Of a stretch of DNA of 64,000 nucleotides, positions 52,866 through 56,490 are shown piece by piece. The DNA is from Pseudomonadota bacterium (GTDB lineage Bacteria > Pseudomonadota > Alphaproteobacteria > Caulobacterales > Parvularculaceae). The notes below the pieces were generated by a model, which ran no database searches, was not told the DNA's origin, and saw only the letters and a program-made list of their open reading frames with translations. Position 1 is the first letter of the stretch. The number at the start of each line of letters is the position of its first letter. A program made the translations under genes and the position numbers. The DNA is taken from NCBI GenBank assembly GCA_038522735.1, contig JBCBJX010000003.1, positions 20,685-84,684 on the forward strand, read 5' to 3'.

Positions 52866-53816
52866 ATGTCCGCCGCCGCGCCCGCGAAACGATCCGCCGC
52901 CCGCCTCGCGCGCATCTGGGCCGCCGCGCCGGCGAACGCCCGGGGCGCGGCGTGGCTCTTCATCGCCGCCATGGCGGTGACGGTGATGTTCGTCGGGGTG
53001 AAGCTGATCGACGGCGACCTGAACGCCATGCAGGTGACGTTCCTGCGCGCCGCCGCCGGGGCGCTCCTTCTCGCGCCGCTTTATCTGCGGCGCGATCCCA
53101 TGCGGCTTTTGAGGCCGAAACGTCCGTGGGCGGTCCTCTCCCGCTCGGTGACGGCGACCATCGCGATCACGCTCGCCTACGTCTCCCTCTCGCGGCTGCC
53201 GCTCGCGGACGCTCAGGCGCTCTCTTTCGCCAACACGCTCTTCCTCGTGCCGATCGCGGCGATCTTCCTCGGGGAGAACGTGGGCGTGCGGCGCTGGTCG
53301 GCGGCGGGGGCGGGGTTCCTCGGCGTCCTGATCATGCTGCGGCCGACGGGGGCGGTGAATGTCGGCGCCCTCGCCGCCGTCGGCGGGGCGTTCATGATGG
53401 CGATCACCATCGCCCAGGTGAAGGCGCTGTCGCGCGACCACGCCGCAAACGACGTCTATTACTGGGGGCTCTCGCTGATGGCGCTCCTCGCCCTGCCGCC
53501 GGCGCTGTTCGTCTGGCGCGCGCCGCAGGCGGAGCATCTCCTCCCCCTCGCCATGGTCGTCCTCGGCGGGGCGCTCTCGCAGTTCTGCTATGTGCGCGCC
53601 TATTCGATCGCCGAGGCGGGGGCGATCGCGCCGGTCGAATACACCCGCCTCGTCCTCGCGGCGATCGTCGGCACCCTGTTTTTCTCAGAAGCGCCCGACG
53701 GCCTCGCCTATGCGGGCGCGATCCTCATCGTCATGGCGACCCTCTACATCACCATCCGCGAGGCGCAGCTGGGGCTGAAGGCGCGCGCGGAGGAGACGGC
53801 GCGAAGCGTGCGGTAA
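52866..53816 (+). CDS. DMT (EamA-type) family transporter
   Basis: It has about 10 TM segments with two EamA-like halves. It is 316 aa and very hydrophobic. Confidence 0.75.
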   Translation: MSAAAPAKRSAARLARIWAAAPANARGAAWLFIAAMAVTVMFVGVKLIDGDLNAMQVTFLRAAAGALLLAPLYLRRDPMRLLRPKRPWAVLSRSVTATIAITLAYVSLSRLPLADAQALSFANTLFLVPIAAIFLGENVGVRRWSAAGAGFLGVLIMLRPTGAVNVGALAAVGGAFMMAITIAQVKALSRDHAANDVYYWGLSLMALLALPPALFVWRAPQAEHLLPLAMVVLGGALSQFCYVRAYSIAEAGAIAPVEYTRLVLAAIVGTLFFSEAPDGLAYAGAILIVMATLYITIREAQLGLKARAEETARSVR

Positions 53817-53893
53817 AGGGCGATGCAATTTGCCGACAATCGAAAGGTAGGCCATCCTTCGAGCTCATCCTTCCGGCAACGAGGGAGGCGTCG

Positions 53894-54340
53894 GTGAAAC
53901 GCTTGATTTTCGGTCTTTGCGGGCTGTTTTTGACGGTGAACGCCGCCGCCGAGGAGGCCGCGCCCGATCTCGGCTGGCTCTCGGGCCACTGGCGGGCGGA
54001 GCGCGAGGGGCGGGTGTCGGAGGAGATCTGGACCGACGCCGAGGGCGGGCTGATGCTCGCCGTCAACCGCTCCGTACGGGACGGGCGGGCGCGCGGCTTT
54101 GAATTCCTGCGCATCCAACTTTTCGGCGAGCCGGCGCTCTACGCCCAGCCGGGCGGCGGCGCCGCGACGCGCTTCGCCCTCGTCGAGGCGGGCGCGGCGT
54201 ACGTCGTCTTTGAAAATCCGGACCATGATTTTCCCCAGCGCGTTCTCTACCGCCGCGAGGGCGACCGGCTGACGGCGACGGCGTCCGACCTCGACGGGGG
54301 AAACCCGCAGGTCTTCCGCTGGGCGCTGAAAACGGAATGA
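53894..54340 (+). CDS. small secreted hypothetical protein (possibly DUF6265-like)
   Basis: The GTG start has a GAGGGAGG SD. The signal peptide is 'VKRLIFGLCGLFLTVNAAA'. 'LSGHWRAE...EIWT' and 'FENPDHDFPQRVLY' are present. The family name is from memory only. Confidence 0.5.
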   Translation: MKRLIFGLCGLFLTVNAAAEEAAPDLGWLSGHWRAEREGRVSEEIWTDAEGGLMLAVNRSVRDGRARGFEFLRIQLFGEPALYAQPGGGAATRFALVEAGAAYVVFENPDHDFPQRVLYRREGDRLTATASDLDGGNPQVFRWALKTE

Positions 54341-54368
54341 GCGATCCGCGTCAGTGTCGGGCGTCTTC

Positions 54369-54503
54369 CGTCATCCCGGGCGAGCGCAGCGAGACCCGGG
54401 ACCCAGGGGCTGCGGGCGCCGCGCCTGAGGCCCTGGGTCCCGGCTCTGACAAGCGTTCGCCGAACCCTGACGGGTTCGGACGCTTGTAGCGGCCGGGATG
54501 ACG
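54369..54503. repeat. REP/MITE-like nested palindromic element
   Basis: The outer inverted repeat is CCGTCATCCCGG (54369-54380) / CCGGGATGACG (54493-54503). The inner inverted repeat is CCGGGACCCAGGG / CCCTGGGTCCCGG. A further hairpin is CCGAACCC-TGA-CGGGTTCGG (54460-54479). The 'RPGMT'-type pseudo-ORF sequence is typical of alphaproteobacterial repeats. Confidence 0.65.
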
Positions 54504-54532
54504 AAACAGGTGTTGGTTTGAAGGGGTGATCC

Positions 54533-54931
54533 ATGCCCGAGCTGAAGACCCGCCCGACCGGCGCCGCGATCGAGACGTTCCTCAACTCGGTCGAGAACGA
54601 GCGCCGGCGCACGGACGGGTTCCGGCTGCTTGAAGTCTTCCGGGAGATCACCGGCGAGCCGGGCGAGATGTGGGGCGCCTCCATCATCGGCTTCGGCCGC
54701 AAGATGATCGCGTATGCGGACGGCCGCGAGGAGGAGTGGATGCGCACGGGCTTCTCCCCGCGCAAGCAGAACCTCGTCTGCTATCTGATGGACGGCGCGA
54801 CGAAGCGCCCGGAACTCCTCGAAAAGCTCGGCAAGCACAAGACGGGCAAGGCCTGCCTTTATGTGAACAAGCTGGCGGATGTGGATAAGGCGGTGCTGCG
54901 GGAGCTGGTTCAGAACAGTTACAACGGGTAG
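54533..54931 (+). CDS. DUF1801 domain-containing protein (YdhG-like)
   Basis: 132 aa. 'TGAAIETFLNSV..' and '..MWGASIIGFG..' resemble the DUF1801 family. The assignment is from memory. Confidence 0.6.
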   Translation: MPELKTRPTGAAIETFLNSVENERRRTDGFRLLEVFREITGEPGEMWGASIIGFGRKMIAYADGREEEWMRTGFSPRKQNLVCYLMDGATKRPELLEKLGKHKTGKACLYVNKLADVDKAVLRELVQNSYNG

Positions 54932-54966
54932 CGCCGGCTCGCCTGCTCCCTAGGGTCGAGCCTCAA

Positions 54967-55900
54967 TCAGACTGACCGGATACGGCCCAGTTCTAACACG
55001 CAACAAAGCAGAACGACCGTCCTAAAACGCCCCAAATAGGACGCTCACAACGTTTTCTGTGCAGGTGGACATGGGTTTGACGAAAGCCGTCTCGTGTGGC
55101 GATTAGTGGCCAGACCACTTCAACAACGGCTCAATCGTCTATGGAGAACAAACCCAAAAAACAGCGCTCTGCGATCAGAGAGCGCGCAAACGCAATCAAA
55201 GAGTTTCGTTGCAAGAACCTCGTCGCTGTCATTGAGAACCCTACTGATATAGGCAACATCGGCACAGTTATCAGGAACGTGAACGCCTTGGGGGTCGAGA
55301 AAGTCTATGTAATCGATTTCCGGGGCTCGCTTCCCGATGACTGGGAAGAAATGAGAGACAGACGCTCTCTGACCAAGACATCTGCATCAGCAGTGAAATG
55401 GACTTTTGTGAAGCGTTTTGAAAGCACAGAGCTTTGCCTAGATCACTTGGAGAATAATAGTTTTGTTTCCATTGTCACATCACCCCATGTGAAAGGCAAG
55501 CAGAGCATTTACTTGCATGAGGGCGACTACACGAAGCATGCAAAGCTTGCGGTATGGTTCGGGAACGAGTCGCGCGGCATCAGCGACTTAGCTGTCGAAC
55601 GGAGCGAAATGTGCGTCGCGGTTCCTATGTTCGGAATGATAGAAAGCCTGAACTTGGCGACTTCATCGGGTATTGTTTTGTATGAAGTGACCAAACAGCG
55701 GCGTGCGTATCAAAGTAAATATCGACGCAGTAATCAGAGAAGACCTCGCGAAAAACCGCTTCCAACGGTTATGCCGCGAGACGACTGAAAACACCGCCCA
55801 CAGCGGGCCTTGGCTCAGCGTCCTTTCCTCGCCCAAAACCGCCGCTCGCCAAAATCCTTGTGAGTGGCGGCCAGTGTCAAATGCCCGTGGTTCAGACTGA
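54967..55900. mobile_element. low-GC single-gene islet bounded by the 9-bp direct repeat TCAGACTGA
   Basis: Hand counts give 48% G+C for 55261-55320 and 40% for 55441-55500, against 72% for 56521-56580. TCAGACTGA occurs at 54967-54975 and 55892-55900. No recombinase gene is present. Confidence 0.45.
55141..55788 (+). CDS. SPOUT (SpoU/TrmH family) RNA 2'-O-ribose methyltransferase, foreign composition
   Basis: SpoU motifs 1-3 are 'DIGNIGTVIRNVNALG', 'AVWFGNESRGIS' and 'VAVPMFGMIESLNLATSSGIVLYE'. It has a basic C-terminal tail. An alternative GTG start lies at 55096. Confidence 0.8.
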   Translation: MENKPKKQRSAIRERANAIKEFRCKNLVAVIENPTDIGNIGTVIRNVNALGVEKVYVIDFRGSLPDDWEEMRDRRSLTKTSASAVKWTFVKRFESTELCLDHLENNSFVSIVTSPHVKGKQSIYLHEGDYTKHAKLAVWFGNESRGISDLAVERSEMCVAVPMFGMIESLNLATSSGIVLYEVTKQRRAYQSKYRRSNQRRPREKPLPTVMPRDD

Positions 55901-55909
55901 GTATGGAGT

Positions 55910-56413
55910 CTAAGAGCACGCCTTCCGCGCGGCTTCCAGCGCTTTCGTGATGCCCAGAAGTGAAATCTCGTAGTTCGTCCGGGTGCCGCGCTTCGAGGTG
56001 GCGCTGACGCGCAGCTCCGAGCCGCGCTTCATGGCGCTGACGAGGGCCTTTTCCTGGCCGTCGCTTTCGATGAAGGCCTCGTTGCCGGCGACGAACATCG
56101 GCCAGTCGTCGGAGCCGACCTTCGCGGTCGGGGCCGAGCCGTCCTTCATGTCGTAGCCGGCCGTCATGAAGCTCGGCTGCTCGATCGCCGCGCCGGAGCG
56201 CCAGGTGGAGACGAGCATGAAGACGTCGCCGTGGTTCACCGATTTCGGCTGTTTCTCCCGCGCCTCGGCGACGGCGTAGCAGATGAGGTCCCCCCCGACG
56301 TCGCGCGTGAAGACCGTCCAGTCGCGATAGGTCGCGACGGATTTCGGCTCGGCGGCGAGGGCGGGCGAGCCGAGGGCGGAGAGGGCGAGGAGGAAGAGAA
56401 CCGTGCGGCGCAT
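55910..56413 (-). CDS. invasion-associated locus B (IalB) family periplasmic protein
   Basis: The signal peptide is 'MRRTVLFLLALSALGSPALAAEP'. 'YRDWTVF....CYA' and the C-terminal 'SLLGITKALE..RKAC' resemble IalB-like proteins. Confidence 0.6.
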   Translation of the reverse strand: MRRTVLFLLALSALGSPALAAEPKSVATYRDWTVFTRDVGGDLICYAVAEAREKQPKSVNHGDVFMLVSTWRSGAAIEQPSFMTAGYDMKDGSAPTAKVGSDDWPMFVAGNEAFIESDGQEKALVSAMKRGSELRVSATSKRGTRTNYEISLLGITKALEAARKACS

Positions 56414-56490
56414 GGACGAACCTTCGAAGGGCTTGGGACGCAAGTTGAACGGGAATTAGCGCGAGTCTGTGACGGATCGAAGGCGGCGCT

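Follow-up and report, generated by a model that had tools for sequence, protein, structure and literature searches.

A TrmH-like RNA methyltransferase gene in a probable transposase-less, IS5-derived cassette of a Parvularculaceae genome

We analyzed a 64,000-nucleotide stretch of a Parvularculaceae genome (the window; C3:20685-84684 of the source genome G000, a 3.19-Mb assembly of 170 contigs with 66.1% G+C) and found that a GC-poor islet at 54932-55909 is probably a non-autonomous, transposase-less derivative of an IS5-family insertion sequence (IS), that is, a mobile insertion cassette (MIC), with a TrmH-like methyltransferase gene as its passenger. As a MIC derived from an IS5-family IS, the element is of a known kind, here in a new family and with an unusual passenger. 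The cassette itself covers 54953-55910 (958 bp) and consists of imperfect 27-nt terminal inverted repeats (TIRs), end modules of approximately 95 nt, and one passenger gene, the only open reading frame (ORF) of any size in the islet. A first-pass annotation of the window had reported a lone foreign methyltransferase gene with no recombinase left behind and no terminal inverted repeat visible. The islet indeed lacks a transposase; the repeats, overlooked in that annotation, are present, and at 16/27 matching positions they are too degenerate to be seen by eye and so are evident only from sister copies.

The closest homologues of the gene gave no element boundary because neutral flanks are saturated at their 83-85% nucleotide identity. 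These six copies share a promoter-like block, a leader, the ORF, and approximately 10 nt past its stop, where the shared block ends, so the rest of the islet had seemed unique. We searched its non-coding pieces (54932-55069 and 55801-55909) in G000 by short-query BLAST and found that both recur on C28, 2.1 kb apart. The C28 cassette (C28:17634-19901; L232 4135-6402) has end modules 83% identical to those in the window and TIRs, CTAGGGTCCAGACTCAATCAGA and CTAGGCTCCATATTCAATCAGA, that agree at 19/22 positions; its passenger, on the opposite strand, is an unrelated S15/PepX-type peptidase gene. Converging on the cassette from its two sides are a TonB-dependent receptor gene and a gene of the glyoxalase family. 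These two genes abut directly in G001, the sole congener of G000, giving a precise empty site: ...gcgcggttc-TA-ggctaccagc... in G001 and ...gcgcggttc-TA-[GGGTCC...2261 bp...GGAGCC]-TA-ggtcaccagc... in G000. For the C28 cassette, the insertion is resolved to the base, with one TA becoming two at a CTAG target.

Compared with the C28 cassette, the TIRs in the window match at 22/27 positions on the left and 21/27 on the right, and the left TIR has 5 mismatches to the 29-nt family consensus described below. Homology to G001 fades at approximately 54910 on the left and resumes at 55916 on the right, where the TAG stop of the IalB gene (55910-55912; CTA on the plus strand) is made up of the last cassette base and the TA. 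By analogy, we infer that the window cassette was inserted in the same way as its sister. A transposase supplied in trans, probably of IS5 type, would have inserted it at the TA of C-TA-A, where the IalB-like gene has its stop codon; two copies of the TA would have resulted, with the last base of the cassette restoring the TAG stop. The target CTAA would have given TAG on the minus strand already before insertion, and the empty site would have consisted of convergent DUF1801 and IalB genes 19 nt apart.

Similar elements occur in other members of the family. We constructed a 29-nt TIR consensus probe (TA followed by GGGTCCATACTCAATCAGAACGACCGG), which found only the four true termini and one marginal site in the 3.19 Mb of G000. 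A search of the joined end modules against 152 genomes of the window's GTDB family (the family sample) returned nothing else at full length; the termini do recur. Using the probe together with visual junction checks in fetched loci, we identified seven further TIR-bounded elements (0.8-2.85 kb) and three solo ends in five other family genomes. These elements carry a LysE-type translocator (G533, 805 bp); a 381-aa protein with no family match (G023 (a), 1.42 kb); an FGE-sulfatase-domain protein (G023 (b), 2.85 kb); an HI1420-type antidote, its upstream partner ORF, and a Tdi1 immunity domain of the type VI secretion system (T6SS) (G460, 1.30 kb); a TPR protein (G559 (a), 1.25 kb); a 298-aa protein with no family match (G559 (b), 1.94 kb); and a 170-aa protein with no family match (G537:C2, 0.84 kb). 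None of the nine elements contains a transposase domain, and their passengers are mutually unrelated. Matches to the TIR core outside the family, being without full termini, were set aside as chance.

A junction table of 10 elements shows that TA flanks most copies. Just outside the TA, the base differs between elements at most junctions (A, C, or T to the left; G or A to the right), and the inner G and C do not change, which makes TA, not CTAG, the duplicated sequence. In 9/10 elements, a gene pointing inward has its TAG stop joined to one terminus (P = 4e-8 vs random TA sites). CTAG is rare (1,022 sites), and half of these sites already close long open frames. Once a CTAG preference is allowed for, P is about 0.01, which is mildly unusual only, and we rejected a special stop-codon targeting mechanism; the CTAG preference plus selection against intragenic insertion accounts for most of the stop-codon junctions.

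A candidate source of transposase was found in one family genome, as the one element with cassette termini and TA flanks among the IS4/IS5-type hits of the cassette-bearing genomes. The G537:C22 element (L330 1034-2320) is 1287 bp long and has TA flanks and cassette-type outer 18-nt termini (TA-GGCTCCAGACTCAATCA... and ...TGATTGAGTTTGGAGCC-TA), which the window termini match at 14/18 positions. It encodes ORFA (144 aa, DUF4096; 118.9 bits over profile positions 3-118) and ORFB (120 aa, DDE_Tnp_1; 122 bits over profile positions 138-258), both scored against NF033580, the NCBIfam IS5-family equivalog with a cut-off of 110 bits. Together these form a complete split transposase, and a DUF3806 passenger lies inside the inverted repeats; we therefore regard this element as a "transporter IS". 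The IS5-type DDE transposase present in this relative is missing from the window element, which is thus a derivative and not an IS. On C12 of G000 there is a decayed ORFB-like remnant (C12:44547-44894), 52.5% identical over 120 aa to G537 ORFB and interrupted by in-frame stops; we found no ORFA and no cassette-type termini near it. We also considered an IS630-type (DDE_3) transposase as the cognate enzyme. It is present in 41/152 family genomes; its resolved copies end in TA-GAGCG..., and none occurs in G000 or G001, so this candidate was dropped. Separately, the complete genome G023 has 54 DDE_Tnp_1 matches, including approximately 23 identical copies of an IS with AGAGCCTGATCCAAAAGT-type termini, an expansion unrelated to the cassette termini.

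The passenger gene encodes 215 aa, counted from the ATG that fits the lengths of its homologues, and matches Pfam SpoU_methylase (6.6e-26, 91.6 bits) with all three motifs. Pfam thus agrees with the first-pass annotation on a lone SpoU-family methyltransferase and also on its DUF1801 and IalB neighbours. Among NCBIfam models, TrmH ranked first (77.2 bits; NF008295 equivalog cut-off 227) and RlmB second (65.8 bits; TIGR00186 cut-off 160.15), the latter over profile positions 85-240 only. The top three PDB matches by sequence were 1zjr (1e-17), 1v2x, and 7edc, the three solved TrmH enzymes, at 22-27% identity, with alignments running almost end to end (TrmH residues 5-14 through 169-180). A fold search with an AlphaFold (AF2) model again placed 1zjr, 1v2x, and 7edc first; the model (predicted local distance difference test score, pLDDT, 89; predicted template modelling score, pTM, 0.84) has a single domain whose core is flanked by helices 7-20 and 172-196. 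Across 35 aligned sequences, with identities as low as 27%, the catalytic R45 never varies, and conservation is 90% or more at N39, E143, S169, and N171; N39, R45, E143, S169, and N171 align with TrmH N35, R41, E124, S150, and N152. These TrmH residues, together with a single-domain architecture with short terminal extensions and no extra domain, define COG0566A (PMC1829167). Because its score lies under the equivalog cut-off, we class the predicted protein as TrmH-like rather than as TrmH. The enzyme most likely 2'-O-methylates tRNA, by homology at G18, which would make Gm18. We found no native TrmH in G000 or in 30 relatives, and G18 methylation would give the host a modification that it does not make natively. 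G000 does have RlmB (on C13, 160.8 bits) and TrmJ-family genes, both over cut-off, as well as a gene resembling TrmL and another, SpoU-like gene that could be assigned to no class.

The gene had earlier been proposed as a resistance or RNA-immunity determinant. An antibiotic (self-)resistance enzyme of the Tsr/NshR or AviRb type, methylating 23S rRNA, would belong to the same SpoU superfamily and would suit a mobile, accessory gene, and the protein does match NshR/TsnR weakly (44 bits) and resemble 3gyq, 3nk6, and 1x7o in structure. Its scores for such enzymes, however, are far under the cut-offs (44 vs 425 bits on the NshR/TsnR model; 37 vs 500 bits), and matches to Tsr, NshR, AviRb, and RlmB are restricted to their C-terminal catalytic domains, those to Tsr/NshR starting at approximately chain residue 118-121. 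The 215 aa leave no room for the roughly 100-aa N-terminal domain of Tsr/NshR/RlmB (L30e-like in RlmB). TrmH enzymes, by comparison, come first by both sequence and fold in near full-length alignment, and no thiopeptide or other biosynthetic genes lie nearby. The single-domain TrmH architecture makes a resistance role very unlikely, and the earlier suggestion of resistance or RNA immunity is not supported.

Turning back to the ends of the cassette, the first-pass annotation had pointed to an exact 9-mer, TCAGACTGA, near both composition boundaries and had suggested it as a target-site duplication. Exact copies of the 9-mer lie at 54967-54975 and 55892-55900, and the window has no others. A target-site duplication is likewise present; it is the TA pair (Table 1) and not the 9-mer. 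Illegitimate or microhomology-mediated recombination, in which TCAGACTGA served a circular or linear fragment as crossover or duplication, would fit the exact match near both boundaries and the fact that 2 of the 8 copies in G000 (counting both strands) lie here. A 9-nt match alone is not significant: there are eight exact 9-11-nt pairs within 54700-56200, and a 9-nt pair arises in 4.6% of flank-segment shuffles and in 20% of genomic segment pairs with this geometry. Moreover, each copy lies inside a TIR (positions 15-23 of the left TIR and 11-19 of the reverse-complemented right TIR), and the two are oppositely oriented and not in register. Only at its central base does TCAGACTGA depart from its reverse complement, so the identity of the two copies can be seen as a by-product of a near-palindromic, decayed TIR core (consensus TCAATCAGA). 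The right end of the sister cassette has TCTGATTGA and not the 9-mer at the equivalent position, its empty site shows TA duplication, and the composition break in the window sits exactly at the TA (54951), 16 nt ahead of the left 9-mer. These results contradict recombination at the 9-mer, which is highly improbable.

The drop in composition between the DUF1801 stop (54931) and the IalB stop (55910) was reproduced: 54932-55909 has 51.7% G+C vs 66.1% for the whole genome, and only 0.7% of 1-kb windows in G000 fall below 52%. The methyltransferase ORF has 48.9% G+C, with G+C at codon positions 1, 2, and 3 (GC1/GC2/GC3) of 0.505/0.407/0.556; GC3 is 0.91 in both neighbouring genes. Orthologues at 67-77% amino acid identity are present in 10/152 family genomes (6.6%) and in 4 of 400 other genomes (1%) sampled evenly from the class, and their neighbourhoods are unrelated in every case, G001 included. 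When relatives were checked at the window's own locus, the gene was absent there. A scan of one genome per species yielded 348 relatives at a flat 70-78% identity across Rhodobacterales, Sphingomonadales, Hyphomicrobiales, Caulobacterales, and others, and a small clade at 89-94% identity from Henriciella-labelled and other metagenome-assembled genomes, with a further metagenome-contig copy at 92%. In the gene tree, the window copy groups with these six closest sequences (Shimodaira-Hasegawa-like approximate likelihood ratio test, SH-aLRT, 98). As no copy in a family genome exceeds 77%, the hosts of the 89-94% copies lie outside the window's family, and the proteins flanking those copies share only 53-65% identity with the G000 orthologues (ribosomal L13 64.5%, S9 62.9%). 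In G001, flanks are 83-92% identical and the methyltransferase copy, at another locus, only 75%. This incongruence between flank and gene identity demonstrates horizontal exchange.

The earlier proposal of a horizontal acquisition is upheld by the GC3 gap and by closest homologues that do not come from the congener; judged by its sequence relationships, the gene is such an acquisition. The closest copy (L047) has 0.49 G+C and a GC3 of 0.55, like the window copy, in a host genome of 49% G+C. Among 52 substitutions private to the window copy, 31 are GC>AT and 16 AT>GC, a ratio as in copies from low-GC hosts, and almost none of the divergence of the window copy accrued under the 66% G+C regime. 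The promoter-plus-ORF unit would have come from a lower-GC lineage related to Henriciella-type bacteria, in another family. The promoter-like block is conserved 5' of all six closest copies in six different contexts; it may act as a promoter, and it was not picked up by a simple sigma-70 scan.

An old, vertically inherited housekeeping trmH, with low G+C intrinsic to the family, would account for part of the composition. The gene is GC-poorer than its flanks in 78/79 loci across Alphaproteobacteria (mean -8.6 points), gene and flank G+C are correlated (r = 0.75, slope 0.65; 80 loci, L047-L126), and the deficit persists at host-like GC3 (at GC3 0.93, still -7.6 points). Furthermore, taxon labels cluster on the gene tree and synteny is kept in some clades. 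However, the intrinsic deficit of this conserved Lys/Asn/Ile-rich protein covers only about half (7-8 points) of the 17-point dip, and a GC3 of 0.556 vs 0.91 cannot be intrinsic; it is the GC3 gap that marks the gene as foreign. Vertical inheritance is also at odds with the patchy distribution within family and class, with a congener copy less similar than out-of-family copies, and with a gene lying inside a transposon-derived cassette. For the window copy, this explanation is contradicted and extremely improbable; for the GC deficit across the family, it still holds in part. In several Sphingomonadales (L069, L076, L092, L109, L123, L126; L080, L086, L090), the gene stands beside conserved upstream genes, starting at or overlapping the stop of a conserved upstream gene or, in Sphingomonas, following the end of another conserved gene, an arrangement that points to vertical descent and to integration into operons in these clades.

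There is a negligible chance that capture of an integron-type gene cassette at a secondary site accounts for the islet: the islet does have a single promoter-proximal ORF and a structured 3' flank, but that flank folds no better than shuffled sequences (z -1.1, -0.3) and shows on inspection no RYYYAAC...GTTRRRY pair of the kind expected of attC, no integrase or cassette array lies nearby, and the ends are inverted repeats common to IS5-type elements.

Several observations weigh against interpreting the islet as an IS5-derived MIC with a TrmH-like passenger. A matching transposase was not found in G000, where only the C12 remnant was recovered; this absence is weak evidence, since repeated IS copies are often lost from fragmented assemblies such as this one. 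The G537:C22 element is a related IS and no more than a candidate mobilising partner, having only the outer 18 nt or so in common with the cassettes. The window cassette, with TIRs so weakly matched to each other, may be a fossil. We found no empty site for the window's own locus: the sole congener has other DNA there, no DUF1801 relative exceeds 59% among metagenome contigs, and, apart from G001, none exceeds 54% among the 152 family genomes. None of 90 other loci with the methyltransferase has cassette TIRs within 4 kb, so a cassette would have taken up the gene either within this lineage or within a donor that is not among the sampled genomes. Finally, a score of 77 bits, below the 227-bit equivalog cut-off, makes Gm18 specificity an extrapolation.

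Table 1. Features of the cassette and its surroundings, in window coordinates
Feature	Position	Strand	Evidence or remarks
DUF1801-family gene, native left neighbour	54533..54931	+	Pfam PF08818; 83% identical to G001 orthologue, synteny kept
Native intergenic spacer, 19 nt, 84% G+C	54932..54950	.	Between DUF1801 stop and insertion point
Left end module	54950..55044	+	83% (79/95) to G000:C28 (L232 4135-4228); includes hairpin 55018-55042
Left TA target-site duplication copy (target C-TA-A)	54951..54952	.	Junction table of 10 elements; sister cassette empty site
Left TIR GGGTCGAGCCTCAATCAGACTGACCGG	54953..54979	+	Contains left 9-mer
Passenger segment, 777 nt: promoter-like block, leader, ORF	55045-55821		
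Promoter-like block TTGACG-N17-CGATTA	55076..55104	+	Conserved 5' of all six closest gene copies
Predicted TrmH-like SPOUT RNA 2'-O-methyltransferase gene, 215 aa	55141..55788	+	Pfam SpoU_methylase; best NCBIfam model TrmH
Right end module	55822..55914	+	83% (78/94) to L232 6309-6402; includes stem-loop 55839-55870
Right TIR (reverse complement GACTCCATACTCAGTCTGAACCACGGG)	55884..55910	-	Contains right 9-mer
Right TA duplication copy	55911..55912	.	
IalB-family gene, native right neighbour	55910..56443	-	Pfam PF06776

The hairpin described in the first-pass annotation exists and lies in the left end module (Table 1). We searched 54300-56000 against Rfam and found nothing credible. The islet had no PHROGs or PADLOC match, and phage and plasmid collections held only homologues below 32% identity; on these grounds a phage, plasmid, or defence origin was ruled out. 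The gap between the DUF1801 and IalB genes in G001 (L031, G001:C40, 2650-5001) holds a different single ORF, GC-poor and 156 aa long, of the SF0329 family, a duplicated IalB 3' fragment, an SDR gene, and a TetR gene, with no cassette termini. This gap is a hotspot for foreign DNA, which has arrived by more than one route. Upstream, the DUF6265 gene (window 53744-54340) is missing from the otherwise syntenic EamA-DUF1801 interval of G001. Between the DUF6265 and DUF1801 genes lies a palindromic element (54366-54447) resembling repetitive extragenic palindromes or miniature inverted-repeat transposable elements (REP/MITE-like), which is multi-copy in G000 (at least 10 contigs, 80-92% identity); a copy is also found directly 3' of the G001 methyltransferase gene. 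Elsewhere in G000, there are approximately a dozen further strongly GC-poor patches, down to 28% G+C (C52:16250-17500, C18:29750-31500, C79, C112, C71, C26).

An islet that had seemed to lack a mechanism can now be described as a defined mobile element with base-level boundaries. Transposase-less IS derivatives of this kind can carry ordinary cellular genes, in this case one for a predicted tRNA-modification enzyme, between families of marine Alphaproteobacteria, and landing at stop-codon CTAG sites does little harm. The partly intrinsic GC deficit of a conserved protein family calls for caution in composition-based island calling. A lineage without TrmH could, to judge from this case, gain a Gm18-type enzyme as accessory DNA, and the physiological value of the modification would then be testable by presence/absence comparison. 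A broader reading, which we consider unlikely, is that, in this marine alphaproteobacterial family, IS5-derived cassettes serve actively and generally to shuttle single genes, as a transposon-based counterpart of integron cassettes. A constant pair of end modules would time and again pick up a promoter together with its gene, whichever way round, and carry the unit to a CTAG stop-codon site where two genes converge. On this account, selection would have favored the TrmH-like passenger because 2'-O-methylation of the D-loop guards host tRNAs against tRNA-targeting toxins or phage nucleases; such a protective role would fit the antidote and T6SS-immunity passengers of the G460 cassette.

The elements described here resemble known MICs in having IS-type TIRs, a target-site duplication, one or few passengers that differ between copies, no transposase, and a related transposase-encoding IS in the same bacterial group. 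In the Bacillus cereus group, the MIC known as MIC231 has ends that derive from IS231 of the IS4 family; the ends here are instead of the IS5 family (NF033580 type), with TA duplication at CTAG-like sites. The IS5 subgroup is probably IS427-like. MICs are defined as IS-related objects that lack a transposase of their own and can be activated by a cognate transposase (PMC3129680), one example being the qnrS2 MIC of Aeromonas plasmids (PMC5444012). In contrast to known MICs, these elements reside in marine Alphaproteobacteria at 1-2 copies per genome, and the one in the window has a tRNA-methyltransferase-like passenger. A "transporter IS" is an IS that carries passenger genes (PMC3129680), and the split-transposase G537:C22 element is of this type, with ORFA and ORFB, 18-nt termini common to the cassettes, TA flanks, and its DUF3806 gene. 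The window element differs in having lost, or never had, a transposase, and its termini match only the outer 14-16 or so of the 18 nt.

The passenger protein has the single SPOUT domain, short basic N- and C-terminal extensions, and three motifs of TrmH (COG0566A; 1v2x, 1zjr, 7edc; PMC1829167, PMC11640301). It differs from TrmH in belonging to a tight, patchily distributed alphaproteobacterial subfamily whose members are 70-94% identical to one another. Horizontal transfer of trmH has been described before, from Thermus to thermophilic Synechococcus (PMC11456837). That case likewise involved a single gene passing over a large taxonomic distance under purifying selection. The transferred Synechococcus gene, however, has a GC3 that has converged on that of its host and no reported mobile-element vehicle (PMC11456837), whereas the gene in the window retains an unameliorated GC3 and its vehicle can be identified.

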